From the NCBI GenBank assembly GCA_026397175.1, contig JAPLVK010000023.1, positions 1 through 55,637 on the forward strand: 55,637 nt of DNA, in the 5' to 3' direction. Below the pieces are notes generated by a model that worked only from the letters and a program-made list of their open reading frames with translations, was not told the origin of the DNA and did no database searches. Below, piece after piece: positions 2,956-46,121 of the stretch (positions within the stretch are counted from its first letter, which is position 1; every line of letters begins with the position of its first letter). Source of the stretch: Candidatus Berkelbacteria bacterium (lineage in GTDB: Bacteria > Patescibacteriota > UBA1384 > DTJR01). The translations under genes were made by a program, and so were the position numbers.

Positions 2956-3636
2956 ATGTTTAGTTATCCCGATGAAGTCGCAGCTTGTATGGAGAAAATA
3001 TGGGATCCTATCAAGCGGCTGATTGAATGGTTTGAAGTCATCAAAGGGGCGTCTCCAGTAACATTAACAAGACAGGGCATTTCGGCGGTTTACGCCGAAG
3101 TGCTGTTGGCGGGGATCGAGTTGGGTGAACTTAGGAAGTTGGTCGAAAAACTTCAGCCGGTTCCTGTTCCTCCGATCAGCGACGGAGTTCTTCGACTTGC
3201 CGAACAGATATGGGAGGACTTGGGGGAGGAAAAGAGGAAGCAATTTCTCGACAGTTTGGTGGACCCGATTTTTGCGGGGCAGAAAGTTGGCGAAGTATCG
3301 CCAATAGACGAACTCCTGCGTGATTCAGCCGAGCTGTTTTTTTCTACCCCATGCATCGGAGCACGCGGCGGCGAAAACCTGTTGATAGGTCTTCGAGTCA
3401 GGCAAGATATCAAGTTGCCGGACAGTTTCGAAGACTTCAAGGCGGAGTCAATAATGCGTCAAATTCGGGATACGAAAGTTAGAATCGGCACTATTCCGAC
3501 TGATCAGCTTGAGTTTGGCGACTATCATGGTTGTACTACGGCCGCCCTCAAAGGGGAGAACGGATCGCCGACCGAAGTACCTAGCGACATTGCGGTCCAA
3601 GAAGCCCAGGACGAAATCGCCCAACGCGGCGGATAG
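2956..3636 (+). CDS. Hypothetical protein (GC-rich island, gene 1 of 3)
   Basis: 226-aa ORF. AAGGAG lies 9 nt upstream of the ATG. No motif recognised. Confidence 0.7.
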   Translation: MFSYPDEVAACMEKIWDPIKRLIEWFEVIKGASPVTLTRQGISAVYAEVLLAGIELGELRKLVEKLQPVPVPPISDGVLRLAEQIWEDLGEEKRKQFLDSLVDPIFAGQKVGEVSPIDELLRDSAELFFSTPCIGARGGENLLIGLRVRQDIKLPDSFEDFKAESIMRQIRDTKVRIGTIPTDQLEFGDYHGCTTAALKGENGSPTEVPSDIAVQEAQDEIAQRGG

Positions 3637-3690
3637 TCCGCCTTATCAACTCGCAAACAAAAAACGGCAAAGCCAAGAAAAAGGTGAAAG

Positions 3691-4188
3691 ATGAACGAGA
3701 ATCTGCCGAAAGCATCGCCGATGGCCAACCAAGCCATTGGGGAACTTATAGCGGCAACGGTCCATGCGACCGTTTGCTCGATTCTAGAGAAAAACGGCAT
3801 GGCACCATGCTCTGTGGGTAGGCCTCATGTAAAGCTTGACGAAGAGTCCGTCATGAGTATGCTGGGTTGGGATGTTTTCTTCTATCATCCAGACAAACCC
3901 ACTAGAAGTATCAATATCATCTTCTATGTGCCAAAGAGTCCGTATTATTCTGAAGCGAAGCGGCGGGTAGAAGAACTGCTGTCTATGGTTCACGAAGGCG
4001 GATTCGTGTATCTCGATCTGCCCGAATGTATCTGCTTCAAACGACTCGAACGGTTCGGGGTTGATCTGGTTTACCACCAGAGCGAGGAAGCTGAAGTCAA
4101 AGAAGAAATCCTCCAACTCTTCGGCTGCTGCGGTGGCGCTTGCCATGAGGCAGAGGACACCGAACCACGCCGAAGCCGGACATGGTAG
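3691..4188 (+). CDS. Hypothetical protein (gene 2 of 3), Cys-rich C-terminus LFGCCGGACHE
   Basis: 165-aa ORF with a GGTGA SD. Same strand and composition as its neighbours. Confidence 0.65.
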   Translation: MNENLPKASPMANQAIGELIAATVHATVCSILEKNGMAPCSVGRPHVKLDEESVMSMLGWDVFFYHPDKPTRSINIIFYVPKSPYYSEAKRRVEELLSMVHEGGFVYLDLPECICFKRLERFGVDLVYHQSEEAEVKEEILQLFGCCGGACHEAEDTEPRRSRTW

Positions 4189-4245
4189 GACGCCTCGGCT
4201 AATCCGCCGAGCAATCAATAAACGGCAAAAGGAGAGAAACACACC

Positions 4246-4815
4246 ATGTGTGAAGTTGTGATTTCGAAAGCGCTTCGGGAACGCGCGATGGGCAAGATAG
4301 AGGATCCCGATCAAGTAAAGTCGGAGTTGATCGAGAATGTCTTGGAGGAACTAGTCCAACCCGAGGGACTAGATCTAAGGCGCTCGCAGGACGCGCGGCT
4401 AGGGGAGTATCTGCAGCAAAACTGCGATCTCGAGCTCTTTTATTTCGAGAGAGACGGTTGTCTGCGCGCTCGCTTAATGCCGAAAGCCCTAACTGAAGAT
4501 CTTGAGACGGTTTTGGGGCTTGATGTTGATACAGAGGAAGGTACGGCTAAAGTCATAAAAGTCCTCGAAGACCAAAACCGTACCCCCGCCAATCTCGCCG
4601 GAGTTGGCTTTGTGATTGATACCAGCCAATCCCCGCCGGTGGCCATGACACTGATGGAGGGAGTAGTGCTGGCCGATGCTAATTTCTTGAGCTTTGGGGA
4701 GTTTGTCAAGGCCATTTGTAGCGAGCTCAAGATTGAGCCGCCGGATCTAGCGCCTCTCTTTGAGTGTCTGAGTCAGCTGAAGCAGAAAATCAAAGAGGGA
4801 GCATCCGGTAGCTAG
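4246..4815 (+). CDS. Hypothetical acidic protein (gene 3 of 3)
   Basis: 189-aa ORF. AAGGAGAG lies 9 nt upstream of the ATG. Confidence 0.65.
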   Translation: MCEVVISKALRERAMGKIEDPDQVKSELIENVLEELVQPEGLDLRRSQDARLGEYLQQNCDLELFYFERDGCLRARLMPKALTEDLETVLGLDVDTEEGTAKVIKVLEDQNRTPANLAGVGFVIDTSQSPPVAMTLMEGVVLADANFLSFGEFVKAICSELKIEPPDLAPLFECLSQLKQKIKEGASGS

Positions 4816-4832
4816 GTAGACAACAAACAACA

Positions 4833-4886
4833 GGGCCACCCGTAGTCCCGCCATAGGCGCGGACGAAGGGTGGCCCTTTTTCTTTT
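4833..4886 (+). terminator. Intrinsic terminator of the three-gene operon
   Basis: GGGCCACCC (4833-4841) / GGGTGGCCC (4868-4876), followed by TTTTTCTTTT. Confidence 0.75.
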
Positions 4887-4916
4887 GGAAAAAAATGGTA
4901 AAAATAAGATGGTTGA

Positions 4917-5044
4917 ATAATGAATTACGAATAACGAATTACGAATGGGTTTGAAAATTAAAAATTGCAAAATTGAATGCCCGGAGGGCGAACCCGCATC
5001 CTGCGGGTGAGAAAATTGCAAAATTGAAAATTGTAAAATTATAA
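4917..5044. repeat. Composite AT-rich repeat: a family A arm, then family D arms (gaaaattg words) around a GC-rich hairpin core
   Basis: aatgaattacgaataacgaattacgaatggg, then gaaaattaaaaattgcaaaattgaa-[ACCCGCA-TCC-TGCGGGT]-gaaaattgcaaaattgaaaattgtaaaatt. Ends 1 nt before the dnaE ATG. Confidence 0.75.
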
Positions 5045-8642: not shown

Positions 8643-8716
8643 CGAATTACGAATAACGAATTATGAATTATGAATGGGAATTCATTCTTAATTCGTAATT
8701 CATGATTCATAATTCG
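8643..8716. repeat. Family A AT-rich imperfect palindrome (gaattaYgaat / attcRtaattc words)
   Basis: Left arm cgaattacgaataacgaattatgaattatgaatggg pairs with right arm aattcattcttaattcgtaattcatgattcataattcg. A 33-nt stretch is identical to 38677-38709. Confidence 0.85.
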
Positions 8717-8725
8717 ATTTTGCAT

Positions 8726-8754
8726 TTGACTTGCCTTTTAAAAAGTGCTATTAA
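8726..8754 (+). promoter_or_regulatory. Promoter TTGACT-17 nt-TATTAA
   Basis: -35 at 8726-8731 and -10 at 8749-8754. Confidence 0.6.
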
Positions 8755-8761
8755 TAAAATA

Positions 8762-9621
8762 CTTGTAAAAGATCGTTGAAAAAAGGGAAGGGAGTGACCG
8801 CCTTTGGGCTAGTTAAGTCCGGCAAGCATGCGAGGGTGATCGGTTAGTCGACTTCCGCATAGTTGCTTTTTAGGGTTGATCCCTAGACCCAACTAGTGCA
8901 AAGCCATTCGGACCATAGAGTTCCCCGGTCATCTGTACCGTGCATCAGCGCGTTTGTCGCAACCAGCCGTTGTTCGCAGTAAACGCAGGACGGGACTAGA
9001 GGAAAAACCTGAAGGCAGTAAACTGTGCCGAGCTTCATCGGGACACCGATGAGGGCCGGCACGCCATCATCTTCATTGCGGGTTTTACTCGGACGAGCTT
9101 ATTCGGTTTGCAGAGGCGCCCTGCTGTGGGACATGTGGAAAAGAGTGTCGGTCTGCTGAACGCGGCGGATGTTAGCGCAGTGAATGCGGGGCGTCTCTGC
9201 TTTTGAATCTTCCCCAGTGGGGAAGGCCTGCTCCATCGCGGTCGCACCGGTCAAAGCTGCTCTGCTGCTTCCCCCGGCTGCAGAGCAGCCCAATCACAAC
9301 GCTCTCTGCCCTTGGGAGAGCTTGTCGCAAAGAGATCTTATCCCGCCTGATGGCGGGATAGGAAACACAACCAGGCCGGACCGCTCTCTCGCTCCCCTCT
9401 GCCGTACCCGCAAGCGCGAAGGGGGCGGTCCGGCCGCTATGACTCCTTTCCCGCTTGACAAAGCGGGAGATGTCGGATACAATGTACCCAGAAACCCTCC
9501 CTTTGACCCGTCGGGAGCGATCTTGTTCCACGGAAGATCGTCCCGACGAGACCATTCCTTGCCCCCCCTTGGGGGCAATTATCACCGGCCGGTTCGCACA
9601 GAACCGGCCGGCTTTCGTTTT
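8762..9621 (+). ncRNA. Large GC-rich structured RNA candidate (about 860 nt), class unknown
   Basis: Promoter and terminator bracket the unit. There is no protein-like ORF. Many perfect helices are present (9340-9359, 9374-9384/9425-9435, 9449-9468, 9514-9544, 9561-9576). Confidence 0.6.
9585..9621 (+). terminator. Intrinsic terminator
   Basis: CCGGCCGG - 11-nt loop - CCGGCCGG, followed by CTTTCGTTTT. Confidence 0.75.
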
Positions 9622-9630
9622 AAAATAGAA

Positions 9631-9701
9631 TCTAGAATTATGAATAATGAATTATGAATGGGAGTAGATTCGTAATTCGTAATTCAAAATTCGTAATTCA
9701 C
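9631..9701. repeat. Family A AT-rich palindrome
   Basis: gaattatgaataatgaattatgaatggg ... attcgtaattcgtaattcaaaattcgtaattc. Confidence 0.8.
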
Positions 9702-13991: not shown

Positions 13992-16511
13992 TTACATTTT
14001 TTTCAACTGATCTGGTCCTTCTGCCGGTTCTCCTTCTGCCGTCATCTCCATTTGATTTTGTTGGCTATCCGTTTTTTTCTTAACATCAATGTTAACCAAG
14101 TCATCCTCTTTTTCCGTTTCCTTTTTTGAGACCATTTCTTCGAGCGCTTCTTTGGCCGCTTTAAGTTTGGCTTTGACATATCTGACAATATCGGTGGCGT
14201 TATAATCGCTAACCATCATCAGAGGTAGGACCTCCTTGGTTTCCTCAAGCGCTTTCTTTTTTTGCTCAACTTGGGGCGAAATCAGACCGCTCAATACGCC
14301 CTCCAACTTTTTGACTTCGCTTTCAACCCATTCCTTTCTGCTTTTTCCCGCCGGCACCGGTGCTTCAAGAAAGTGCTTTTTCCACATCAATTTTGAATTT
14401 TGGAAGTCCTCGTCTTTTTCTAACTCATCGACAATTGAATCGGTGGCGTTTGACAAATTCTCGGCTGTCGGACTTTCCTGAAGTTTTGAGAGCTCTGCCA
14501 CAACCGCGCCTCCTTGTTCGAGCTCATCAAAGTTTTCGTCTCCGACTTTGCGTCCGGAATCAAGCACTTTTTTGAGCGCGGAATATTCTTGTTTCTCGCT
14601 TGCGTCGGCAATTTTTTCGGGATGGGCGAGTTTAAGGGCCGTTTGCGCTAAAAAGTTATTTTTGGCCAATTCCGATGGCTGGCTCATGGCCTGTTTGATT
14701 TCATTAATCGCCTTAACCGCGAGCGTGATTGTCATCTGGTTTGCGCCGCTTAATTTGTCTTGCGTTCTTGAGAGATAATCAAGCAAGGTCTTGTCCGGCA
14801 CCTTGTAGGTTTGTTGGAAAATTTTGGTGGACTGCTCGTCGCCCTGATAAATCGTGGTCAAATTTTTCTCAAAATTATTGAGGGAATTTTGATAGAGCTG
14901 ATCCGTAATGTTTGAAGATAAATAATGGGTCATATTTTTCGTAACGGCGTTATTCAAGGTTGCGGCGGTTTTGTCGCCCATGACGGATTTCATGTAAATG
15001 CTGTTTTTGATCGCGTCATATTTTTTCTGTTCGACTTTATCCGCGATCTGATCCGGATTTGAAATTTTATCAAAAACCTCTGCGGAATTTTGCAGTTTAT
15101 CTTTGTCTTGCTCGAGTCGTGAAAGCCGCGAAAGCTTGTTTTGGCTAGACGATGCCATCAATTCGCTGACATCAGGCAGGGCTCCCGCTTCGTGAATAAT
15201 TTGCGGAATTGACATTTTTTCGACAACCTTTGAGAAAATTGTCGTCGGCACATTTTTGGCGGCAGGAGTGCTGCCGGAGACAAAAGGAAGATTTTTTTGG
15301 CTGATTTCATGGGTTACAATTGGCCCGGGCGGGGTCTTGGGGCTTGGCGGCGGACTTCCATTTGTAATGTTTGAAAGATAATTCTTTAGAGCCGATTGAT
15401 TAAATGTATTGACGATTTTACTTCCGGCTTGAACCGAAAAAGTCATGATTATTCGCAAAAGTAAAAACGGCAAAATGATCGCTGCCCAAATCATCAAAAG
15501 AGCGATTAAATATCGGACGAAAGTGTCGGTTTCGGATAAATTGTTGCCCTTATCGTCTTTGCTGCTACCAATTTGTAATTTTCCACCCGTGACTCCCGGT
15601 GGCATCAAAATTATATTGGTACCCGACTCATAAGTATTGTCCGGTTTTCCGGTATCGTTGGTTCCGGTTTGCAAAGGAATGCCGCTTTTTCTGGTAACTC
15701 CGGCTGGTAAAAATGTCGGGGTGATTGAAGTTCGCTGCCAGATGTAGGGGACGGCGACCAAAAAAATGACAAAAAGCGGACCCAAGAAAAGAAAACGGCC
15801 AAATTCTCTAAGCCAAACAATCGCCACATTTCGAACGGCGCTAAAAGCAAGGCAAGGGAAAATAAGAGGGGAGAAAATGACTAAAAGCCATAAAATCACG
15901 ATTCTGAAGATCAAAACAGCCGCTATTGCGTAGTTTGTCCAAGTGGTTAATTTTACCAACATAAGGTTGGTATTGACCGATTCTTGCAGGTCGGTATTGG
16001 TATTTTTGAAGCCATGAAAGTCCTGATAATTAAAACTAACCGACAATAAGTCCTCTGCCTGAAGCGGCCTGACGGTTGGATTGCCCGCGGTGTCGTAAGT
16101 CGTGATTTTTAAAAATCTGGTTTGAAATTCGTCAGTCCATTTGATTGCGGAAACGGCAATATAAAAAGAAAAATAACTTAGCACAAAAGCCGCTAGCAGG
16201 ATAATAATTGTTCTTTTTTGCTCTTGTGCCCAACTGGCTTTCAAAATCATGCCGAAAGCCAAAATTACCAAAAGAACAAAAAGGATAATCGTGTTGAGGG
16301 TTACGATTTTTTGCCAAGCGCCCTTGATTGCCGTGCCGTTATCGGAAAATCCGGCATCTTTAAGCGTCAAAGCCCAATTTAAAATTTCGCGAGCCCTCGC
16401 GGCTGCTTTGCCAACGGCCGTAACGGTAGCATCGGGTTGGAAATCGGCAGCGTAGACCCGAGAAGTCGCAAACCCCGAAAACAACACGGAAAAAAAGACC
16501 ACAAACAACAA
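13992..16511 (-). CDS. Polytopic membrane protein with a long C-terminal soluble region, function unknown
   Basis: 839-aa ORF with several hydrophobic spans. AAAGGAGG at 16543-16550 suggests the true start may lie upstream, near 16538 (in-frame ATT). That start would give a signal-peptide-like MNAALKTKFLLFVV... Confidence 0.7.
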   Translation of the reverse strand: MLFVVFFSVLFSGFATSRVYAADFQPDATVTAVGKAAARAREILNWALTLKDAGFSDNGTAIKGAWQKIVTLNTIILFVLLVILAFGMILKASWAQEQKRTIIILLAAFVLSYFSFYIAVSAIKWTDEFQTRFLKITTYDTAGNPTVRPLQAEDLLSVSFNYQDFHGFKNTNTDLQESVNTNLMLVKLTTWTNYAIAAVLIFRIVILWLLVIFSPLIFPCLAFSAVRNVAIVWLREFGRFLFLGPLFVIFLVAVPYIWQRTSITPTFLPAGVTRKSGIPLQTGTNDTGKPDNTYESGTNIILMPPGVTGGKLQIGSSKDDKGNNLSETDTFVRYLIALLMIWAAIILPFLLLRIIMTFSVQAGSKIVNTFNQSALKNYLSNITNGSPPPSPKTPPGPIVTHEISQKNLPFVSGSTPAAKNVPTTIFSKVVEKMSIPQIIHEAGALPDVSELMASSSQNKLSRLSRLEQDKDKLQNSAEVFDKISNPDQIADKVEQKKYDAIKNSIYMKSVMGDKTAATLNNAVTKNMTHYLSSNITDQLYQNSLNNFEKNLTTIYQGDEQSTKIFQQTYKVPDKTLLDYLSRTQDKLSGANQMTITLAVKAINEIKQAMSQPSELAKNNFLAQTALKLAHPEKIADASEKQEYSALKKVLDSGRKVGDENFDELEQGGAVVAELSKLQESPTAENLSNATDSIVDELEKDEDFQNSKLMWKKHFLEAPVPAGKSRKEWVESEVKKLEGVLSGLISPQVEQKKKALEETKEVLPLMMVSDYNATDIVRYVKAKLKAAKEALEEMVSKKETEKEDDLVNIDVKKKTDSQQNQMEMTAEGEPAEGPDQLKKM

Positions 16512-16588
16512 AAATTTTGTCTTTAAGGCGGCGTTAATGTTCCTCCTTTTGTATATATTATAACTTTATTTTGGGAAAAAGGGAAAAA

Positions 16589-16677
16589 ATTAAACAATTG
16601 AACAATTAAACAATTTGTCAATTTTAGGATTTTGAATTCTTAATTGATTAATTGCCCAATTGAATAATTGATTAATT
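16589..16677. repeat. AT-rich word repeat, family C (aattgtttaattg / caattg words)
   Basis: taaacaattgaacaattaaacaatttgtcaatt ... ttaattgattaattgcccaattgaataattgattaat. Related to 40941-40983 and 46050-46121. Confidence 0.75.
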
Positions 16678-16682
16678 TTCAG

Positions 16683-16710
16683 TTGACAGGTTTCGAAAAT
16701 GTTTTATAAT
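16683..16710 (+). promoter_or_regulatory. Consensus promoter TTGACA-16 nt-TATAAT
   Basis: -35 at 16683-16688 and -10 at 16705-16710. Confidence 0.7.
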
Positions 16711-16716
16711 TAAACT

Positions 16717-17282
16717 AGCAGTAACAGCTGTAGTTCTTTGACTAAGACGAAAAGAAGGGAGGAAAGCCGAAGAAGAAATGAAACCGATGTGGATGTCTCT
16801 GGCCGCGTGAAGCATTTGGGGCTCATAGGTCGTAAAACAAGGCCGCATCTCGGGTCGCAAGAGTTGTCCCAACTGCATGAAGAGCTAGAAGCAAAGTTGC
16901 ACCGACGAAGAACCCAGCCCTGCTTGCAGAGCTGGGAAGAAAGGGCGTATGCGCATATGAACCGGTCGGCAGTCGTTCTGATGAGTGTGGAGGGCGTTGT
17001 CAGCTAGCTCTCGAATCGTAGCTTGCTGGCGAAACCTCTAAACCTGATCCGGCCTTGCCGGATCCAACGACTTCAACGGACAAGCGACGAAACGGCGCCC
17101 TCGGTGAGGCGCGCCGTTTCTGCACTAATCACGCATCGCCGTACCTTCCATCCATCCCACATATCGCTTTACCCGCAACTCTTTTTTTGTCTTCGCAACC
17201 CTGTCTTACATCCTGCAGCGCAGCGACATCGGGTTGTACAAGTGGGGGCGTTCCGAGCCATTCGGACGCCCCCCATTTTTTT
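16717..17282 (+). ncRNA. GC-rich structured RNA candidate (about 566 nt), class unknown
   Basis: Consensus promoter and a strong terminator. The only ORF is a TTG-started Arg/Glu-rich frame. Helices at 16913-16918/16931-16936, 17046-17064 and 17089-17098/17111-17120. Confidence 0.6.
17244..17282 (+). terminator. Intrinsic terminator
   Basis: GGGGGCGTTCCGA-loop-TTCGGACGCCCCC, followed by CATTTTTTT. Confidence 0.8.
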
Positions 17283-17457
17283 AGAAATTTAGAATTATGT
17301 CGATTTATCGCGAATCGTGATAGGAAACACACTAAAATGTGGTCTACATTTATTCCCGTAGCCCACATCTTCGATTTCACTCAGACCATGAGCGCAAGTC
17401 GAATGGATTTATCGTGTTTCCCCGTAGCCCACACTTCAGTGTGTTATAGAATTTAAT

Positions 17458-17919
17458 TTATGTCGGATTCTCGGGAGTTGGCGGGAGCGTAATTCCGCCG
17501 TCATTTTGTATCAGCGTGGCGGTCAAATAAGGACACGATTTATCGGTTCTGGTTTCAAGGCATTTCCAATATTTTATCGTTTGCGATAAATCAAGAGCAT
17601 TTAGTAAGTTAGCTGTGCCGGCCGTTTCGTCAACCAGATTATAATCGGCATTTACTTCTTTCCAATGGACAATTTCTGCGTTGATATCAAGACCATCCAC
17701 AATACCGTCGTCAATTGAATCGCCGGCAATTCGAGGGACAACTGGAACGGGCGGGTTCACTTGCGCCGCATTTATAGGCCTTATCGGTTTCGCCGGAGTC
17801 GGAGGCGTGGTGGAGTCGGCCGAGGGTTGGTTGGTATAAACAAAATAACTTAAAACCCCAACCAGAAGAACCAGTAAAATTGTCGAGGCAAAAGTAACGA
17901 AAATCGCTTTTTTACTCAT
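17458..17919 (-). CDS. Membrane-anchored protein with a dockerin/EF-hand-like Asp-rich motif
   Basis: N-terminal TM segment (AIFVTFASTILLVLLVGVL), a Pro-rich linker, and GDSIDDGIVDGLDIN. Confidence 0.55.
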   Translation of the reverse strand: MSKKAIFVTFASTILLVLLVGVLSYFVYTNQPSADSTTPPTPAKPIRPINAAQVNPPVPVVPRIAGDSIDDGIVDGLDINAEIVHWKEVNADYNLVDETAGTANLLNALDLSQTIKYWKCLETRTDKSCPYLTATLIQNDGGITLPPTPENPT

Positions 17920-18808
17920 TTTTTATATTGAACTTTAAATAAACGCTTGCGCCATTATTTGTCGGCAATAAATGCGCTCTTAAATATATTCTACCACTAA
18001 TTTTACTATCATTTGCAACAATTACAAATCGTTCTTGGGGCAGATTAAAGTGCGTCAGATTCAAATATTTATCAAGAAATTTTAAAACAATTGTTTTTGG
18101 AATTTTGCCCAAAGATTTTCTGGGTCTCGAGTAATAAATATCAATTTTTTCATTTTCGCCAAGCGAAAAACAAAAGTTATCCGCCCCTAGCATTGCGAGT
18201 TTCTTGATTAAAGATACAAAAATTTTTCCGTCAGGTGTCTGAATTTTTTTCGCTGCACCATTTTGATTTTTATTCGCTTCTTTTTGTTTGCGGGCGACTT
18301 TTAAAATTCGCTCGCGGATTTGCAGCTCAATTTTTTCTTTTTGAACTCTTGGCAAAATCGAAAGAGTTTTGAAGTTAAGTTTTACAGTACTCTTTTGGGG
18401 TTTTTCCGCAGTAATTGGTATCGAAACATCCTTGACTTTGATATGACTGATTTTTGTCTTTGCCTCTTTTTCTTTTTGCCTTTGCTCGAAATTTTGCTGT
18501 CGGATTTGCTCCGGCGACCTGCCCGCAAGTGTTGCCTTAAAATCCGGCATGCTTTTAAATTTTATTTCTCGGCTATTAAGCAATAACCGCGGCGTTTTAG
18601 TGCCGATCTGTTTAATAATCCGGCTTTTTCGCTCTATAATATAAAAATTGCCAAAGCCGTTTAATGTGACTCTGCCTCGTTCTTTTAGCAAATCACAAAT
18701 CGCCACATCCGCCTCAAGTAAAATATTCCTAACACGGCTCATGGGCAAATTTACCTGCCCACCAATCTTTTTAGCCATTTGAGTCCGGTTCGTAAAATTT
18801 ATTTCCAT
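17912..18808 (-). CDS. HU/IHF-family DNA-binding domain protein with a ~200-aa C-terminal extension
   Basis: N-terminus ...RVRNILLEADVAICDLLKERGRVTLNGFGNFYIIERKSR... resembles the Bac_DNA_binding fold. Confidence 0.65.
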   Translation of the reverse strand: MEINFTNRTQMAKKIGGQVNLPMSRVRNILLEADVAICDLLKERGRVTLNGFGNFYIIERKSRIIKQIGTKTPRLLLNSREIKFKSMPDFKATLAGRSPEQIRQQNFEQRQKEKEAKTKISHIKVKDVSIPITAEKPQKSTVKLNFKTLSILPRVQKEKIELQIRERILKVARKQKEANKNQNGAAKKIQTPDGKIFVSLIKKLAMLGADNFCFSLGENEKIDIYYSRPRKSLGKIPKTIVLKFLDKYLNLTHFNLPQERFVIVANDSKISGRIYLRAHLLPTNNGASVYLKFNIKNE

Positions 18809-27994: not shown

Positions 27995-28014
27995 AATTTT
28001 ATAATAACACTTTG

Positions 28015-28055
28015 GAGTAAAATAATCAGGGGCTCTCGAACGTGTCGAGAGCCCC
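28015..28055 (-). terminator. Intrinsic terminator of the GC-rich gene 28079-28645
   Basis: GGGGCTCTCGA-5 nt-TCGAGAGCCCC, followed by a T-rich run on the minus strand. Confidence 0.7.
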
Positions 28056-28078
28056 GGATTGACGATCAGCCACTCAGG

Positions 28079-28645
28079 TTACTTCGCGTAGAACATCCGC
28101 AGGGACAGCTTGATCTTGCCCTGCTCGGGAAGCTCTACGGTCAGCGAGCCGAATACGGCTGCTCGCTGGAACATCTCGTCTCCGTTGCCCTGCAGTGCGC
28201 GGATCACGACCCCGGTCGTATCCCCTGGTTCCAGCAGCACCCTCCCCTGATCACGCTTGAGGACAATAAGATCGGGGAAGGTTCTATCAAAGCAGGTAGA
28301 CGCGGGAGGCTCGTACTTGAAACACCACGCGAGGCCAGTGTAAGCATGCTGCGGTATCGCACGCCTGGAGACTCCGCCGTTGAATCGCAGGGTTCCTAGA
28401 TCAAGTACCGCAGACCTTGATCTTAACCCCTTGCGTTCTTCCTCCTCCACGGTGGATACGGCCGAGTCGTGCTTCTGGTCGTCGTTAAGGTTCTCATACC
28501 CCTCCGGCAGACGACCAGCGTGCGACCTCTCAAAAGCCTGAACAACCGGGTCGCTTGTGAGCGGTGGCGGCTTGGGGGTGGTCAACGCCAAACAGACCAA
28601 GGCCGCCGCGACTACGATCAGGATTGCAATCGTGAGTTTAGACAT
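28079..28645 (-). CDS. Membrane-anchored or secreted hypothetical protein (GC-rich island)
   Basis: ATG at 28645 with AAGGAG 9 nt upstream. MSKLTIAILIVVAAALVCLALT signal anchor. Confidence 0.7.
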   Translation of the reverse strand: MSKLTIAILIVVAAALVCLALTTPKPPPLTSDPVVQAFERSHAGRLPEGYENLNDDQKHDSAVSTVEEEERKGLRSRSAVLDLGTLRFNGGVSRRAIPQHAYTGLAWCFKYEPPASTCFDRTFPDLIVLKRDQGRVLLEPGDTTGVVIRALQGNGDEMFQRAAVFGSLTVELPEQGKIKLSLRMFYAK

Positions 28646-28832
28646 TGGGACAACTCCTTGTGCCGCGGTTAGCGGTGTGGAATAACTGCTACTCGTTAGC
28701 TGCACTCAAGCCGGCCACGAGATTTCGTACTATCTCTGTACTATCAAGGAACTACGCGAACTGCTTAGGTTTCGCCGGCTCGATGGCCGCTGAAACCCAA
28801 ACCCCGTTGAACGGGGCACAGCAGATCGGACA

Positions 28833-28861
28833 AATATACCATCTTGACACCTGTTTGTCAA
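28833..28861 (-). promoter_or_regulatory. Promoter TTGACA-17 nt-TATATT with a ~180-nt leader
   Basis: The -35 lies inside the palindrome TTGACAcctgttTGTCAA (28845-28861). The leader contains CCCCGTT-CAA-CGGGG followed by TTTGGGTTT. Confidence 0.55.
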
Positions 28862-28917
28862 TGGTTCGGCAAGGTTCATTCATTTGACAAGCTCACCACA
28901 GGTGGTTCGACTCGCTG

Positions 28918-28946
28918 TTGCTTACTCACCACGGGTGTGCTATACT
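28918..28946 (+). promoter_or_regulatory. Promoter TTGCTT-17 nt-TATACT
   Basis: Read directly from the sequence. Drives the short unit below. Confidence 0.45.
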
Positions 28947-28952
28947 TGAAGC

Positions 28953-29017
28953 AGAATCACGACGAGAGGGCACGCCCAAGGGTTAGTCCGAGGGATACTC
29001 CCTCTCTTTTCTTTTAC
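28953..29017 (+). ncRNA. Candidate ~65-nt sRNA
   Basis: The promoter is followed by a GC-rich segment ending in GAGGG-ATACT-CCCTC and TCTTTTCTTTT. Confidence 0.35.
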
Positions 29018-29565: not shown

Positions 29566-29666
29566 AATCGAATTACGAAGTACGAATAATGAATTACGAA
29601 TAATCGAGATTTTTCGTAATTCACCCATGATTCGTTATTCATAATTCTAAATTCGATCCCCAGATT
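29566..29666. repeat. Family A AT-rich palindrome
   Basis: aatcgaattacgaagtacgaataatgaattacgaataatcg ... cgtaattcacccatgattcgttattcataattctaaattcgat. Confidence 0.8.
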
Positions 29667-31185: not shown

Positions 31186-33813
31186 ATGGCCAAACAAAAC
31201 GAGGCGGTTAAATTGCCGCCACAAAATTTGGAAGCGGAGCAAGCGGTTTTGGGCGCGATTTTAATAGATAAAGACGCGCTTTATAAAATTGCCGAACTCT
31301 TGCAGCCCGATGATTTTTATCGCGACGATCATCGCGAGATTTTTTCGGCCATGTTGGGGCTTTTTGAAAAAAGATCGCCGATTGACCTCGTCACCTTAAC
31401 CGACGCTCTTCGCAAAAATAAAAAACTCGATATGGCCGGCGGCGCAACCTATTTGACCCATTTGGCCAACAGCACTTTATCTTCGGCTCATATCACTAAA
31501 CACGCCGAAATCGTTTCCGAAAAAGGAATTTTGCGCCGGCTGATTAAGGCGGCGACGCAGATGATCGAGGACAGCTATTCGGAAAGAGACGAAATTCCGA
31601 TGATTCTTGATCGTTCGGAGCAGGTTTTGTTTGCCGTTTCACAAAAATTTGCGACTGATAAATTTATAGCGGTTAAAGATGTGCTGGCGGAAACATTTGA
31701 CCGCATCAACGAACTTCACGAAAATCGCGGGCAGCTGCGGGGCATCGCATCCGGGTTTAAGGGACTTGATAATTTGCTAGCCGGTTTTCAGAGATCGGAT
31801 TTAATTATTATCGCGGCGCGGCCTTCGATGGGAAAAACCGCGTTGGCACTAAATATTGCTTGCCACGCCGCCGCCAAAGAAAAAATCCCGGTTGGCGTTT
31901 TTTCTCTTGAAATGAGCCGCGACCAGTTGGTAGATCGTCTTTTGACCATGGAGGCGGGGATTGACTCGTGGCGGCTTCGAACCGGAAATTTGCGCGAGGA
32001 TGATTTTTCGAAATTAAACTACGCCATGGGGGTATTGTCAGAAGCGCCTCTTTACATTGATGATTCCGCGCTACTTTCGGTCATGGACATCAGAGCTAAG
32101 GCAAGGCGGTTGCAAGCCGAAAGCGGGCTGGGGCTGGTGATTGTTGATTATTTGCAGTTAATGGAATCAGCTCATCGCGGATATGGTGAAATCAACCGAG
32201 TTCAGGAGGTCTCTGATATTTCCCGAGGTCTTAAAGCCCTTGCGCGCGAACTCAATGTTCCGGTTATTGCGCTTTCGCAGCTTTCGCGCGCCGTTGAGTC
32301 CAGACATCCCAAAATTCCCCAGCTCGCCGACCTTCGTGAGTCAGGATGTCTGGCAGGCGACACCTTAGTTTTTGACGCCCGAACTGGGTTGATGAAAAAA
32401 ATCGCCGATCTTGAAGGTGAAAAAAAATTCAAGTGTGCCGGAGCCGATGACAAAAATAGAATAACACCTCAAAGCGCGTCAAAAGTATTTTGCACAGGGA
32501 CTAAAGAGGTTTATCTTTTGACTTTATCAAGTGGCAAACAAATTAAAGCAACAGGCAATCACAAATTCAAAACTATAGATAGTTGGGAACGACTGGATTC
32601 TTTAAACGGAGGTGATTTTATTGCAACAGCCAGAAATGTCATTGACCATGAGTTAAAAGTTGATGTTTCCGATAATAAATTGATTGTACTGGCGCATTTA
32701 ATCGGAGATGGTTGTTATCTTAAAAAGCAGCCATTGCATTACACAAATGCCGACCAATTATGTTTAGCGGCTGTCAACAAAGCTGCGGCAGAAGAATTTG
32801 GTACCAAAAACCGATTGGTGCAACAAGAAAATTGGTATCATCTATATCTTTCAGCAAACGAACCGCTCGCGCGAGGCCGAAGAAATCCGATTGTAAAATG
32901 GTTTGATGAAGAACTTGCGATTTTCGATCAACGATCGGGAGAAAAAAATATTCCAGACATCGTTTTTCGGCTGTCCAAGAAAAAATTAGCTTTATTTTTG
33001 AAATATTTGTTTGCAACTGACGGCGGTTTGACCAAATCCGCAGGGCAGTGGCGCTTGCATTATGCATCGAAAAGCCGAACCTTGATTGAGGGTCTGCAGC
33101 ACCTTCTTTTGAGGTTCGAAGTTTTTTCGATTATTAAACAAAACAGGAAAAAGGGGTATGCAACGGTTTACGATTTACAGATTACAGGTAAAGAAAATCA
33201 ACTTAAGTTTTTGAATCAGATCGGAATTTTCGGCGCAAAAGAGGCAAATGTTCAAAAAGCAATCAAGGAGTTGAGCCAGATTACGGCAAATACAAATATT
33301 GATGTGATTCCCAAACAAATCTGGGACAAGATAAAAAATAAGCTCAAGGAACGCGGGATAAATGGTCGCGATTTTCATAAAATGATGGGGTGGGCTTATA
33401 GCGGGACGCAAAGATATAATAATGGAATATCGAGAGTGCGGCTTGAAAAAATCGCTAAGACCTTAAAAGATCAAGAATTACATGATTTTGCACAGTCCGA
33501 TGTTTTTTGGGAAAAAATTGTCTCGATAGAAAAATGCGGTGTCGAGAAGGTTTATGATATAACGGTGCCCAGCGTTCATAATTTTGTGGCAAATAATGTT
33601 GTGGTGCATAACAGCATCGAGCAAGATGCAGATGTGGTGATGTTTATATACCGAGAAGAATATTATGATCCGGAGACCGAGAAAAAGAATATTGCTCAAA
33701 TCATGATCAAAAAACATCGAAATGGCCCGATTGGGGACATTGATCTATTTTTCAGCCCAGAATTTAGCCGCTTTTCGACGATAGAAAAGAGAATTCCAGA
33801 AGCAGGGGAATAA
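31186..33813 (+). CDS. dnaB: Replicative DNA helicase DnaB interrupted by an intein
   Basis: PPQNLEAEQAVLGAIL, GFKGLDNL, ARPSMGKTA, then ...ADLRESG|C...HN|SIEQDADVV... and KHRNGPIG. Confidence 0.95.
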   Translation: MAKQNEAVKLPPQNLEAEQAVLGAILIDKDALYKIAELLQPDDFYRDDHREIFSAMLGLFEKRSPIDLVTLTDALRKNKKLDMAGGATYLTHLANSTLSSAHITKHAEIVSEKGILRRLIKAATQMIEDSYSERDEIPMILDRSEQVLFAVSQKFATDKFIAVKDVLAETFDRINELHENRGQLRGIASGFKGLDNLLAGFQRSDLIIIAARPSMGKTALALNIACHAAAKEKIPVGVFSLEMSRDQLVDRLLTMEAGIDSWRLRTGNLREDDFSKLNYAMGVLSEAPLYIDDSALLSVMDIRAKARRLQAESGLGLVIVDYLQLMESAHRGYGEINRVQEVSDISRGLKALARELNVPVIALSQLSRAVESRHPKIPQLADLRESGCLAGDTLVFDARTGLMKKIADLEGEKKFKCAGADDKNRITPQSASKVFCTGTKEVYLLTLSSGKQIKATGNHKFKTIDSWERLDSLNGGDFIATARNVIDHELKVDVSDNKLIVLAHLIGDGCYLKKQPLHYTNADQLCLAAVNKAAAEEFGTKNRLVQQENWYHLYLSANEPLARGRRNPIVKWFDEELAIFDQRSGEKNIPDIVFRLSKKKLALFLKYLFATDGGLTKSAGQWRLHYASKSRTLIEGLQHLLLRFEVFSIIKQNRKKGYATVYDLQITGKENQLKFLNQIGIFGAKEANVQKAIKELSQITANTNIDVIPKQIWDKIKNKLKERGINGRDFHKMMGWAYSGTQRYNNGISRVRLEKIAKTLKDQELHDFAQSDVFWEKIVSIEKCGVEKVYDITVPSVHNFVANNVVVHNSIEQDADVVMFIYREEYYDPETEKKNIAQIMIKKHRNGPIGDIDLFFSPEFSRFSTIEKRIPEAGE
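32347..33612 (+). mobile_element. DnaB intein (422 aa) with a LAGLIDADG homing-endonuclease domain
   Basis: Cys1 in CLAGDTLV, block B ATGNHKF, LAHLIGDGCY and LKYLFATDGG, C-terminal NNVVVHN followed by Ser+1. Removing it leaves a 453-aa DnaB. Confidence 0.9.
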
Positions 33814-38674: not shown

Positions 38675-38752
38675 CCGAATTACGAATAACGAATTATGAA
38701 TTATGAATTAATACTTATCCATTCATCATTCAAAATTCATAATTCAAGATTC
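38675..38752. repeat. Family A AT-rich palindrome
   Basis: cgaattacgaataacgaattatgaattatgaatt ... attcatcattcaaaattcataattcaagattc. Confidence 0.85.
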
Positions 38753-38816
38753 TATCTTCAATGAGGGCTTGATGGCCCCGCTTTTTAGGGCGGGGCCATG
38801 TGTGGTTGGGGAGCGG

Positions 38817-39212
38817 CTAAGGCAGGTGCTGTTTGCACCAATCGTGGGCCGCTCGGATGACATCGTACCAAGGAGAGTCGTGTGGTACTTCGTAGGCGAT
38901 ACCACCATCGAAGTAGAAGAGGCGGCGATCGCCGTGGAGTATGAGCTCGGCGGTTTTGTTGACGATCACACTCTCGAGCAACTCGCGAATCGTGATCGTC
39001 TTCGGTTCGGCGTGAGGGAGGGTGATGCTGGGGCCTCGCTTTGCGTTTATACCCAGAAGCACGCAAAGGTCGAGCGGGAAGATCTCGCAATGCGGCGCGC
39101 GTCCCAGGGTTTTCTCGAGTCCCTTTTCCCCGCCAAACTCGCCTTTGAGCCACTCGCCAAGCTGCCTCGCCGTTGAAATTACCGGCTTCGTCTTGATCTG
39201 ATCGAGGGCCAT
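38817..39212 (-). CDS. Hypothetical protein (single-gene GC-rich island)
   Basis: 131 aa. AAAGGAGGG lies 7 nt before the ATG. Has its own consensus promoter. Confidence 0.7.
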   Translation of the reverse strand: MALDQIKTKPVISTARQLGEWLKGEFGGEKGLEKTLGRAPHCEIFPLDLCVLLGINAKRGPSITLPHAEPKTITIRELLESVIVNKTAELILHGDRRLFYFDGGIAYEVPHDSPWYDVIRAAHDWCKQHLP

Positions 39213-39254
39213 TTCGCACCCTCCTTTCTTAAGATGTCAAACAAAACTATCGTC

Positions 39255-39357: not shown

Positions 39358-39436
39358 GTGAATTATGAATCTTGAATTACGAATTATGATTTATTTGATT
39401 TTATTCATAATTCATTATTCGTAATTCATAATTCGA
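39358..39436. repeat. Family A AT-rich palindrome
   Basis: gtgaattatgaatcttgaattacgaattatgat ... attcataattcattattcgtaattcataattcg. Confidence 0.85.
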
Positions 39437-39988: not shown

Positions 39989-40031
39989 AATTCGATCAGT
40001 ATTGTACATTATGTTCAGGAGATGATGCCTC

Positions 40032-40388
40032 GTGGCACTAAAACTGTCTTTCGAAGAACTCTGCAAGATGGGTCTTGTGGGGCGCAAAGTCGTGTGCCGG
40101 ATTGGGCGACGGGAGTATCGCTTCTGGGTAGGCGATCAAAGGGTTTCGAAACGGGTAGGGCTCGTGCTAGAGTGCGACCCGAGGCGGAAAACACCCGAGG
40201 CAGACCGCCGGGTTGGCAAAAGACGGTTTCGGCTGCTAGAGCCGCACAAGCGTCACGGCGCCTTCTTTGTCCATGGCGACTTCGTGATTGAGCGTCGGGG
40301 CAATCTGATTGTCTGCGTTCCTCCTGCGAGGAAGAGGGGGAGCCGGAAGAAGGCACGCCATGTCGTCGTCATCGTCCTTCGGGATTAG
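40032..40388 (+). CDS. Small basic hypothetical protein (GC-rich island)
   Basis: GTG start 10 nt after AGGAG. It is the only protein-like frame. Followed by the terminator at 40412-40464. Confidence 0.45.
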   Translation: MALKLSFEELCKMGLVGRKVVCRIGRREYRFWVGDQRVSKRVGLVLECDPRRKTPEADRRVGKRRFRLLEPHKRHGAFFVHGDFVIERRGNLIVCVPPARKRGSRKKARHVVVIVLRD

Positions 40389-40411
40389 TCCGGGGGACAT
40401 CTCTTTCATAG

Positions 40412-40464
40412 GCCGCGTTTCCAAGCTCACACATTGTGAAATTGGGACGCGGCTCTTTCTTTTT
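40412..40464 (+). terminator. Intrinsic terminator
   Basis: GCCGCGT-28 nt-ACGCGGC, followed by TCTTTCTTTTT. Confidence 0.55.
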
Positions 40465-40470
40465 AAAAAT

Positions 40471-40848
40471 TTAGTTTTGCTCGCTAACGCGTGGTGCCAA
40501 GCGGATGATTACCTTAAACTTTCGCTGCTCGCCGTTAGCATCTTTGATTTCGTCGGTCTGATTTTTGGCATAATATTCCATCAACTCTACGGACAAAATT
40601 TCTCTTAAAGTATTTATTTCGTCTAAATTTGCTTTGATGTCCTCGACTAATTTCTGATTGCCCTCTTCGGACAAAAGTTCATCTTTGAGCCGTTTTTTTC
40701 TTTTGTTCAGCTCTTTGGATTGCTGCGCAACTTTTTGATATTCCAAATCGTTCTCCAAAACCGACTTAATCATTTCTTTTGATTTGCGGTTTTCTTCTTC
40801 TAAGTCCTCGACAATTTTAATTCTTTCTCTAACCACCGATAAATCCAT
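40471..40848 (-). CDS. Coiled-coil hypothetical protein
   Basis: 125 aa, Lys/Glu-rich with a heptad-like pattern. Confidence 0.6.
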   Translation of the reverse strand: MDLSVVRERIKIVEDLEEENRKSKEMIKSVLENDLEYQKVAQQSKELNKRKKRLKDELLSEEGNQKLVEDIKANLDEINTLREILSVELMEYYAKNQTDEIKDANGEQRKFKVIIRLAPRVSEQN

Positions 40849-40940: not shown

Positions 40941-40983
40941 AATAATTGCCAAATTGTTCAATTGCCTAATTGTTTAATTAATG
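40941..40983. repeat. Family C AT-rich word repeat
   Basis: aataattgccaaattgttcaattgcctaattgtttaattaatg. Confidence 0.75.
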
Positions 40984-41014: not shown

Positions 41015-41071
41015 CAAGGGCCAAGAATTGAAGGAAAATTCTTGAGAACATTTCTAGAAAGGGCAAAAACG

Positions 41072-41437
41072 ATGCCCAAGGTACTGATTGTCGAGGATCA
41101 TGACGAGGTTGCCAGGACGGTTGGGGTGGTTATCGAGGGATTCAACGGGTGGTCGGTCGAGCGGGAAATTGATGTCGCGAAAGCGATTGAGCGGCTCCGC
41201 TCGGGCGAGTTCGACTGCGTTCTTGCCAACATGGGGAAGAGAAACCCCATGAACGGCAACGCCGCGACCATCCTGAAGGCGCAAACCGGCGTCCCGGTGA
41301 TCGTAATCACGGGCGGACTCCGGAAGAGCTTGGATGCGCTCGCCCCGCTTAAACCGGCCGTTATTTTGCAGAAGCCCTTCGACAAGAGCACGCTTTTCCT
41401 CGCTCTGGTGGCGGCCTGCCCCGCCGACAAGCTGTAG
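41072..41437 (+). CDS. Stand-alone receiver-domain protein lacking the phospho-acceptor Asp (pseudo-receiver)
   Basis: KVLIVEDHD, then CVLANMG where CheY has vISDwnMP (Asn in place of Asp57), then VIVITGG and ILQKPF. Confidence 0.7.
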   Translation: MPKVLIVEDHDEVARTVGVVIEGFNGWSVEREIDVAKAIERLRSGEFDCVLANMGKRNPMNGNAATILKAQTGVPVIVITGGLRKSLDALAPLKPAVILQKPFDKSTLFLALVAACPADKL

Positions 41438-41461
41438 CTCGACTGCTCCCGTCCCAAATCT

Positions 41462-41503
41462 AAGGCACTTTGGAGACCTCAATCCAAAGTGCCTTTTGCT
41501 TTT
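41462..41503 (+). terminator. Strong intrinsic terminator
   Basis: AAGGCACTTTGGA-8 nt-TCCAAAGTGCCTT, followed by TTGCTTTT. Confidence 0.8.
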
Positions 41504-41514
41504 AATTTAGCAAC

Positions 41515-42060
41515 TTAGACCTTGTAAAAATAAACTTTTGTAATTCTTTTGCAATTTTGCAAGGGTTTTGAAAGATACGGTTTATGGTTTTTAAATTGAA
41601 ACCCGAGAGAACAAATAATCGTCCCTGGCCTTGCCGCAGAAAAAACCATTGGCTCAATTTCTCTTAAAATCTTATCAAAAAGATAGAGATAGATAATATC
41701 GGCCTTTTTGATCTCATTTTTCGCTTTTCTAGCATCGCCAAAATAAATCTTTACATTTTTGGTATGGCCAGAAAATAAAACATTTAACTTGGATTTAAGA
41801 TAGGCGAAAGGGGAGACCTCGAACCCAATCCCTTGTGCGCCATAATTTTTAGCGGCAATTATCAAACTTCTGGCATCCCCGCATCCTAAATCCAAAACAA
41901 TTTGTTCTTTTTTAATTTTGGCCAACTTAAATATCTCGCCGATCAATCTCGAGTCAGCATAAACGGCCGGCGCGCCGCAGGCCAACGCAATTATGCCGGA
42001 AATACTCCAAACAAAAACAAAAAGAGCGAGTAACAAAAAGGAGACATCTAAATAGATCAT
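41515..42060 (-). CDS. Class I SAM-dependent methyltransferase with an N-terminal TM segment
   Basis: VLDLGCGDARSLIIAA...GIGFEVSP (motif I / post-I). Confidence 0.75.
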   Translation of the reverse strand: MIYLDVSFLLLALFVFVWSISGIIALACGAPAVYADSRLIGEIFKLAKIKKEQIVLDLGCGDARSLIIAAKNYGAQGIGFEVSPFAYLKSKLNVLFSGHTKNVKIYFGDARKAKNEIKKADIIYLYLFDKILREIEPMVFSAARPGTIICSLGFQFKNHKPYLSKPLQNCKRITKVYFYKV

Positions 42061-42742: not shown

Positions 42743-42822
42743 GAATTACGAATTTAGAATTACGAATTATGAATGGACTTCAATATTTTAATTATCATTC
42801 TTAATTCTTAATTCATGATTCG
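42743..42822. repeat. Family A AT-rich palindrome
   Basis: gaattacgaatttagaattacgaattatgaatgg ... attcttaattcttaattcatgattcg. Confidence 0.8.
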
Positions 42823-45416: not shown

Positions 45417-45484
45417 TTTTGACCTCACAAATTAAGTTTTTTACTCTTCTTAATCTTATCTCGTGTCCGGTTGTTGTCAAACAT

Positions 45485-45525
45485 TTTTTATCAAATCAAA
45501 ACGGCTCCGCCGAGGCGGAGCCGTT
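45485..45525 (-). terminator. Intrinsic terminator
   Basis: AACGGCTCCG...CGGAGCCGTT, followed by TTGATTTGAT on the minus strand. Confidence 0.65.
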
Positions 45526-45550
45526 GAGCTGACCCAAAAAGTTGGGGAGT

Positions 45551-45970
45551 TCACCGGATCTCGACGCGGTAGGCATCGGACCAGGAGAGCTCGATGGTTT
45601 CGCCGTTCCAGCAGGAAACGAGCGAGACCAGAACGAAGAGCCAGGCCTTGCCCGGCTTGAGGGGGCGAACAACTGACCCATCAACCAGTAAGACGGACGG
45701 GTCGGAAGAGGCGAGAGTGATCTGGGCGGCGGCCGGAGTGGCGCGGTCTTTGAAGCAACCGCCGCGCAGTTCCTTCCACTGAATGACGGGATGAATCGCG
45801 ATCGAAGTTCTTGCGAGCGCGACACCGCCCACGATTCTCGCGCCTTCGAGGCGCGAATACGGGAAGTCGGCCGAGATGCACGAGCTATTATAGCTCGTGC
45901 GCTGCATCTCGGCTGATGCGAGAGAAAGTGATACGACGATGAGTGTGATGACAACAATTACCCTAAACAT
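45551..45970 (-). CDS. Small secreted protein with a possible Big_2-like Ig domain (GC-rich island)
   Basis: ATG at 45970 after GAGGTG. MFRVIVVITLIVVSLSLASA signal peptide. ITLASSDPSVLLVDGSVVRPLKPGKAWLFV. Confidence 0.65.
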   Translation of the reverse strand: MFRVIVVITLIVVSLSLASAEMQRTSYNSSCISADFPYSRLEGARIVGGVALARTSIAIHPVIQWKELRGGCFKDRATPAAAQITLASSDPSVLLVDGSVVRPLKPGKAWLFVLVSLVSCWNGETIELSWSDAYRVEIR

Positions 45971-46017
45971 GTGTGTCGCACCTCGCGTGTTTTTTTCTGT
46001 CAACGATCTAGCCCGAA

Positions 46018-46049: not shown

Positions 46050-46121
46050 AATAATTGAGCAATTAGGCAATTTGTCAATTCCACAATTGTTTAATTGCTA
46101 AATTGATAAATTGTTTAATTA
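46050..46121. repeat. Family C AT-rich word repeat
   Basis: aataattgagcaattaggcaatttgtcaattccacaattgtttaattgctaaattgataaattgtttaatt. Confidence 0.75.

Follow-up and report, generated by a model that had tools for sequence, protein, structure and literature searches.

Surveys of long GC-rich intergenic regions in AT-rich genomes (GC-IGR surveys) have uncovered ncRNA genes, and accept a motif only where covariation is seen across multiple representatives (PMC6429828, PMC8632094, PMC11109978). The locus described herein, designated unit B, differs in being a single representative, where such surveys require several. With regard to individual large RNAs, ROOL (RF03087), GOLLD and OLE resemble unit B in their order of length (approximately 570–600 nt for ROOL and OLE), and in having no adjacent cis-regulated gene.

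Unit B was identified in a stretch of 55,637 nt (the window), which is a core chromosomal segment of an AT-rich (42 % GC), CPR/Patescibacteria-like bacterium. The window encodes DnaE, ClpC, an HU fusion, AroE, an archaeal-type AdoMet synthase, L19 and L27, as well as DnaX, an intein-bearing DnaB, MurJ, LepA and an RNase J-like protein. Within the HU fusion (17912–18808) an HU-family DNA-binding domain is joined to a C-terminal extension of approximately 200 aa, and the DnaB helicase (31186–33813) is split by an intein that contains a homing endonuclease domain of LAGLIDADG type. The RNA biology of candidate-phyla-radiation bacteria is almost unknown and, if transcribed and functional, unit B would be among very few candidate regulatory RNAs in these organisms.

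Expression signals and coding potential of unit B

Unit B is located between two minus-strand genes, being divergent from a VirB6/TrbL-like gene of 839 aa and convergent with a gene of 153 aa, from which its end is separated by 175 nt. The 839-aa membrane protein (13992–16511) belongs to a family in which some members carry a TrbL/VirB6 domain. The sequence-only reading of this DNA had proposed a perfect promoter at 16683–16710, and this is borne out: the plus-strand sigma-70 type element TTGACA-16-TATAAT matches the consensus at 12 of 12 positions, and a consensus scan reveals no other perfect match on either strand of the 55.6 kb, where 0.01 would be expected from shuffles. Transcription would begin near 16717 and, with an end at 17282, the transcript would span 566 nt, in agreement with the length of about 566 nt first put forward. 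The strong terminator that had been claimed is likewise present on the plus strand (17240–17282), and consists of a GC-rich stem, GGGGGCGUUCCGA-GCCAU-UCGGACGCCCCC, with 12 pairs, one bulged U and a 5 nt loop, followed by U7 at 17276–17282. Its predicted fold has an energy of −24 kcal/mol (z = −4.5), and its omission from the list of a consensus terminator scan is probably owing to the bulge.

The GC-richness noted for the unit also holds (55 % for the body, compared to 42 % for the whole window), as does the lack of a following plus-strand gene that had argued against a 5′ leader, with the next such gene beginning only at 23449. The hallmarks of an intrinsically terminated sigma-70 transcription unit, i.e. 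−35 and −10 hexamers with a spacing of 16–18 nt, and a GC hairpin with a U-run, are thus all found in the sequence. Collectively, these signals support the view that unit B forms a GC-rich, ORF-free unit of plus-strand transcription that is complete in itself, and not a 5′ leader. The occurrence of a perfect promoter together with a terminator in a compact genome would further suggest that there is selection on its expression.

The term ORF-free requires some qualification. It stands in the sense that the open frames are no longer than chance, as the longest open stretch has a P of 0.66 against dinucleotide shuffles; it does not stand in the sense that a TTG-started, Arg/Glu-rich frame is the only ORF present. 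Several ORFs of 68–133 codons overlap the unit on both strands, with the 89-aa TTG frame (16738–17007, plus strand) being joined by four others, at 17023–17292 and 17055–17456 on the plus strand, and at 16672–16878 and 17129–17380 on the minus strand. Purine content is 0.60–0.63 at each of the three codon positions. Stops are fewest in a frame that has a single one in 192 codons (P = 0.058, dinucleotide shuffles). Only one start in the unit, the ATG at 16778, has an SD-like sequence nearby (GGGAGG, 16757–16762), and this opens a plus-strand ORF of 10 codons, MKPMWMSLAA, which is closed by a TGA at 16808–16810. The distance from GGGAGG to this ATG is 15 nt, compared to 7–10 nt in the neighbouring island genes.

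Three-nucleotide periodicity for the whole body of unit B reaches z = 1.7, with values of −0.7 and 1.7 for its halves and at most 1.5 in any 150-nt window. By comparison, each of 10 control genes, namely nine ORFs of GC-rich islands plus the 153-aa gene next to unit B, displays strong periodicity, at z = 3.6–27.5; the other non-coding unit of the window, unit A, which is considered below, returns z = 0.0. A Pfam search with all six frames of unit B produced no match, and a full HMMER search with the 89-aa frame against 1.84 G representatives yielded no credible relative. The single match to this frame, at E = 1.7 × 10−4, involves a protein that is internally repeated 4-fold, and was considered fortuitous. 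A six-frame pseudo-protein of the unit similarly found no match amongst 5.8 G protein clusters by word index, although this is a weak test as the ORFs of the unit are absent from that collection. With no periodicity, ORFs of chance length and no relative in protein or Pfam searches, both a protein-coding gene and a recent pseudogene were rejected, and we conclude that the body of unit B does not encode protein, leaving just a slight chance of a micro-peptide.

Predicted structure and known RNA families

The sequence-only reading had regarded unit B as a large structured RNA, and this claim is not supported by folding analyses. The full unit has z values of −2.7 (plus strand) and −2.6 (minus strand), with much of this owed to the terminator; without it, the body returns −1.28 and −1.85, respectively. 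The plus-strand value falls amongst those of the GC-rich islands that encode proteins (−0.7 to −3.2), and unit A, at z = −7.4, is far beyond it. An excess of perfect hairpins is seen in unit B (P = 0.003), but this does not discriminate, as a coding island equals it. The 5′ half has a z above 0 (+1 to +1.8), with the first 270 nt folding worse than shuffles (z = +0.2 to +1.8 in 150-nt windows).

This 5′ region comprises a purine-rich arm (16740–16985, plus strand), defined by skews and 150-nt folding windows, which contains GAAG/GAAGAA repeats and in which both GC and AT skews are positive. Towards its 3′ end is the hairpin CCCAGC.CUGC/GCAG.GCUGGG (16913–16936, plus strand; p = 0.94, −14.7 kcal/mol, z = −2.4), which a consensus scan lists as a minus-strand terminator-like site. 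Adjacent to the arm, folding of the plus strand predicts a domain of three hairpins (16985–17125), located at 16988–17040, 17046–17064 (8 bp) and 17089–17120 (10+4 bp). As a block of 141 nt, this domain has an energy of −65.3 kcal/mol (z = −4.3) and pair probabilities of 0.93–0.999, whilst sliding windows of 150 nt across it give z = −4.6 to −2.9, the strongest of these surpassing all of approximately 90 control windows from coding islands (minimum −3.5). The three helices that had been named from the sequence (16913–16936, 17046–17064 and 17089–17120) were all recovered, with pair probabilities of 0.94–0.999. Beyond the domain is a pyrimidine-rich 3′ arm (17125–17240, plus strand), for which pair-probability folding predicts a hairpin at 17195–17237 (p = 0.99), as well as a long-range helix between UUUGUCUU (17186–17193) and AAGACGAA (16744–16751) that would close the molecule (p = 0.86).

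The layout of unit B is therefore that of an essentially unstructured, purine-rich 5′ arm of approximately 250 nt, a three-hairpin domain, a pyrimidine-rich 3′ arm and a terminator. By these predictions, the approximately 140 nt at 16985–17125, about a quarter of the unit, is the sole part of the body that clearly folds above chance. A generic large structured ncRNA, with stability over most of its length, was accordingly rejected as a description, since this segment alone is significant. Unit B would thus be better viewed as a transcript with a structured domain of some 140 nt plus a terminator, and is not demonstrably a large, globally folded RNA.

Comparison with Rfam 15 at gathering thresholds returned only two tRNAs for the whole window. 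At E ≤ 10 with relaxed filters across 16500–17500, there were no matches inside 16717–17282, and only low-complexity matches in the AT-rich array upstream. No covariance-model match was obtained for ROOL, GOLLD, OLE, raiA, HEARO or any other Rfam 15 family. That unit B is not a housekeeping RNA, a hit to which would have refuted the first reading, is upheld by Rfam and ARAGORN alike: tmRNA, marked by a tRNA-like domain and a tag reading frame, was found by neither, and RNase P, 6S and SRP RNA have no Rfam match even at E ≤ 10. The conserved cores of the latter are the P4 helix and CR regions, the central bubble and domain IV, respectively. With respect to RNase P, the sequence GGAGGAAAGCC resembles the CR-I element only superficially. 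A hammerhead ribozyme was also rejected, because the intervening sequence between CUGAUGA (16975) and GAAA (17030), both of which are present, cannot form stem II beside the core, and Rfam has no match for this ribozyme in unit B. A TIGR array was rejected as well. In such arrays, 36-nt units that bear edge and loop repeats, and dual spacers, follow one another in tandem beside a Nop-domain Tas protein (PMC12045711). The body of unit B has no tandem repeats, the array upstream of it has an 8-nt period and precedes the promoter, and no Nop-domain protein is found amongst the neighbours. Finally, a DGR template was dismissed, as no template/variable pair emerged when unit B was compared by blastn with unit A and the remainder of the window. 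Unit B is, on this basis, in no described large RNA class.

GC-rich islands, flanking repeats and relatives

Unit B does not stand alone in its composition, as the window contains about nine small islands of 53–59 % GC between the core genes of a 42 % GC genome. These are located at 428–1613, 2956–4892, 8784–9647, 16774–17287 (unit B), 28001–29007, 38731–39249, 40010–40471, 41046–41525 and 45454–45992. Most of them are complete genes, each served by a promoter and terminator of its own, and encode an amidohydrolase (540–1574), three ORFs (2956–4815), a lipoprotein-like product (28079–28645), ORFs at 38817–39212 and 40032–40388, a CheY-like receiver (41072–41437) and a small secreted protein (45551–45970). 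CPR and DPANN homologues of the amidohydrolase island are likewise GC-rich within AT-rich contigs. In approximately 30 kb of sequence from relatives no GC-rich islands were found. Another small transcript may be encoded at approximately 28925–29012 on the plus strand, where TTGCTT-17-TATACT is followed by GAGAGGG...CCCUCUC and a U-rich tail; this possible RNA of some 60 nt is divergent from the GC-rich 5′ UTR (approximately 190 nt) of the lipoprotein-like gene at 28079–28645.

Two of the islands are non-coding, units A and B. The suggestion that two such units within 8 kb are unusual is thereby left unsupported, as they are just the non-coding members of a set of about nine. Unit A (8726–9621) is like unit B in that it is GC-rich and ORF-free, displays no periodicity, and has a promoter, a purine-rich GGGAAGGGAG leader, a strong terminator and flanking AT-rich hairpins. 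It is unlike unit B in being far more structured (z = −7.4 compared to −1.3), in possessing an internal near-consensus promoter, and in its sequence. Indeed, unit B has no blastn similarity to unit A or to other parts of the window and is not a repeat, and the alignment that had been proposed thus shows no shared family. Unit A contains six separate perfect hairpins and has no Rfam match; its internal promoter, TTGACA-17-TACAAT (9455–9483), precedes the terminator at 9585–9611, and unit A may be two RNAs, of approximately 600–700 and 130 nt.

Parallels in organization are also found with two of the coding islands. The promoters of unit B and the 839-aa gene, which are divergent, are separated by an AT-rich array of CAATT cores (16586–16679), which a repeat scan shows to have an 8-nt periodicity, and which forms an imperfect inverted repeat (hairpin z = −2.7). 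The CAATT module gives 15 matches, compared to 0.01 expected, and the form AATTGCCY-AATTG...TTGAC also precedes the promoters of two coding islands, at 40944–40980 and 46052–46121. The module directly abuts the TTGAC −35 element in three GC-rich units: unit B, the CheY-like receiver and the small secreted protein. This suggests a common UP element or regulator site. The islands at 41046–41525 and 45454–45992 share with unit B the CAATT/AATTGCCY module, a similar leader length, a GC-rich body and a terminator of their own; they differ in having clear ORFs with strong periodicity (z = 7.9–14.3) and, in one case, a Pfam receiver domain, neither of which is found in unit B. A GTDB scan with the CAATT-array pattern was uninformative, matching only generic 8-nt microsatellites in many phyla.

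Repeats also occur on the other side of unit B. The spacer that runs from its terminator to where the convergent 153-aa gene stops (17283–17457), characterized by repeat scan and folding, carries CCCGTAGCCCACA twice, 66 nt apart, with a related GTAGACCACA on the opposite strand and three motifs of CGATTTATCG type, and a long hairpin is predicted across 17310–17455 (z = −3.9). This segment is missing from relatives. Whether it belongs to unit B is uncertain, and it could serve the 153-aa gene as a 3′ UTR element, or be a cluster of protein-binding sites. The window also has another family of AT-rich repeats that form hairpins, GAATTAYGAAT/ATTCRTAATTC, found at 4922–4944, 8644–8715, 9635–9699, 29570–29647, 33859, 36481, 38677–38745, 39360–39427 and 42743–42765; its hairpins flank both unit A and the 38731–39249 island on either side, and appear in other intergenic spaces as well. 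The approximately 30 kb from relatives holds neither CAATT arrays nor GAATTAYGAAT hairpin arrays, with only an isolated match to the hairpin motif.

The same organism was found in seven other samples, and two contigs from independent assemblies of other samples, L001 and L003, span unit B intact at 99.8–100 % identity. A single difference, G17097C, separates the window from L001 over 11.5 kb and is found in L003 also. It is situated in the GGCGCC palindrome of the 10-bp hairpin at 17089–17120, where it would create a C–C mismatch and the loss of one pair; either genuine polymorphism or an error of assembly could account for it. Beyond this organism, the nearest relatives found have ClpC at 82.6 % identity and the neighbouring gene at 66–67 %. 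In the two closest, the order is HU, a 147/149-aa gene, an 832/870-aa gene and ClpC, all co-directional, and at the site of unit B there are 195–500 nt of unrelated AT-rich spacer, compared to 946 nt in the window. As these relatives retain the flanking genes but not unit B, the latter is a lineage-specific insertion.

No comparable unit was seen at loci where the neighbouring gene has 66, 58 or approximately 38–40 % identity. Searches of all 139 fetched loci by nhmmer and tblastx revealed no homologue of unit B, nor did blastn in distant mode against phage and plasmid collections, or three scans of viral contigs. Twelve patterns back-translated from two frames, covering 12 sites of unit B, had no match in two scans of JGI metagenome contigs, and a GTDB scan with the neighbouring 839-aa protein returned no relatives and was uninformative. 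The anticipated conservation of unit B was thus not seen, either at the syntenic site of relatives or elsewhere, as far as these tools reach, which is to homologues of approximately 85 % nucleotide identity or above; distant structural homologues lie beyond them. Lack of conservation had been named in the first reading as grounds for refuting its proposal and, within this reach, the stronger claim of a large structured RNA fails.

Competing readings and comparison with known systems

Unit B may well be a lineage-specific gene for a non-coding RNA of approximately 566 nt, which is the reading that we favour, albeit tentatively. It is based on a unique promoter, a strong terminator and a module common to two bona fide genes; on a body with no periodicity, chance-level ORFs and no protein or Pfam similarity in any frame; on a domain at 16985–17125 whose z of about −4.5 is more extreme than that of every coding-island control window; and on the presence of the unit, intact and one base apart, in two independent spanning assemblies. 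Against this, the want of a homologue means that covariation or conserved structure lend no support, relatives with 83 % ClpC identity do not have unit B at the same site, and the folding z of the whole body is unremarkable. In addition, the sole polymorphism in 11.5 kb falls within unit B and breaks a pair of its best hairpin, and no candidate target stands out in the window, where a duplex search with 48 translation-initiation regions performed no better with unit B than with its shuffled counterparts.

The main rival to this is that unit B is a transcribed but functionless relic of an acquired coding cassette, in which the promoter, SD leader, ATG and terminator have been kept whilst the frame has decayed. 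We consider this unlikely, yet deserving of serious attention, as the unit has the layout of the 41046–41525 and 45454–45992 islands (CAATT module, promoter, leader of approximately 50–60 nt and start codon), with GGGAGG and an ATG at the expected distance from the transcription start but only 10 codons thereafter. A frame interrupted just once across 192 codons (P = 0.058), folding akin to that of coding islands, absence from relatives, and an only SNP (G17097C) that disrupts a hairpin all fit such a relic. It is less easily reconciled with the complete loss of periodicity from every 150-nt window, with a nearly open frame that has neither SD sequence nor ATG, or with the lack of any protein relative (5.8 G clusters by word index, 1.84 G representatives by HMMER with the 89-aa frame, and Pfam); moreover, decay this thorough should have eroded the 12/12 promoter and the terminator too. 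If a frame is instead still in use, unit B would be an mRNA with a long structured 3′ UTR, and its very small protein would be MKPMWMSLAA, of 10 residues, or else the product of the 89-aa TTG frame. This seems decidedly improbable: highly charged proteins give weak periodicity, which could mask a real frame, and GGGAGG is upstream of the ATG at 16778, but the 15 nt between them departs from the 7–10 nt of neighbours, the TTG frame has no SD sequence, and its sole, marginal match is the internally repeated protein. ORF length at chance level and a 3′ UTR of 470 nt, which would be unusual, also argue against it.

Two further explanations were considered. Unit B might be mainly cis-acting, with the inserted, opposing promoter interfering with transcription or providing an antisense insulator, and the RNA itself being irrelevant. 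The arrangement in relatives accords with this, as their HU, 147/149-aa, 832/870-aa and ClpC genes are co-directional with 195–500 nt between the second and third, precisely where the window has unit B inserted in the opposite orientation. Such a role is nevertheless improbable, as a GC-rich body of 566 nt with a dedicated, efficient terminator exceeds what interference needs, and, with a stop 175 nt before the convergent gene, antisense overlap would arise solely by read-through of the terminator. Alternatively, unit B could be the first member of a widespread class of large folded RNAs, in the manner of ROOL, GOLLD and OLE, whose relatives are below search sensitivity. Size, GC-richness relative to the genome, a stand-alone promoter and terminator, and the three-hairpin domain are in keeping with this, but predictions leave half of the molecule unstructured, folding as a whole has a z of −1.3, Rfam has no match at E ≤ 10, syntenic relatives do not possess the unit, and neither twelve degenerate patterns in JGI metagenomes nor searches of the other collections gave a match, making this very improbable indeed. 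A bolder version of the ncRNA-gene reading, in which units A and B found new ncRNA classes in an uncultured CPR-like lineage, and B is a long trans-acting RNA within a small regulon of acquired, CAATT-driven, GC-rich cassettes, with its purine-rich arm as the functional surface, is also rather doubtful.

Returning to unit B as a lineage-specific ncRNA gene, its RNA would be made at a high level and be co-regulated with the two coding islands that carry the CAATT module, those of the CheY-like receiver and the small secreted protein. It would act in trans via its accessible purine-rich arm, by base-pairing or protein binding, whilst the three-hairpin domain and terminator would confer stability. 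Convergent transcription into the operon of the HU and 153-aa genes may, in addition, limit read-through to the downstream VirB6-like gene. If true, this would link an RNA gene to a distinctive promoter module common to acquired genes. As a single-lineage orphan without comparative support, unit B is of value mainly as a lead for metatranscriptomics; the broader pattern, of GC-rich, self-contained islands between the core genes of an AT-rich genome and missing from relatives, may be of more interest.

In comparison to known systems, unit B is unlike ROOL, GOLLD and OLE in that it has no covariance match, no evident complex fold across the molecule and no conservation, and also in that it belongs to a different host group and is without the gene or prophage contexts that characterize them. 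Its length exceeds by far that of typical trans-acting sRNAs (50–300 nt). Orphan, species-specific sRNA and ncRNA genes with a sigma-70 promoter and an intrinsic terminator, in turn, are like unit B in being stand-alone and intergenic, with a GC content above that of the genome; both signals are their own, they contain no ORF, and hairpins form locally. Unit B is thus an orphan of a familiar kind, a candidate stand-alone bacterial ncRNA gene, rather than an evidence-supported new class.
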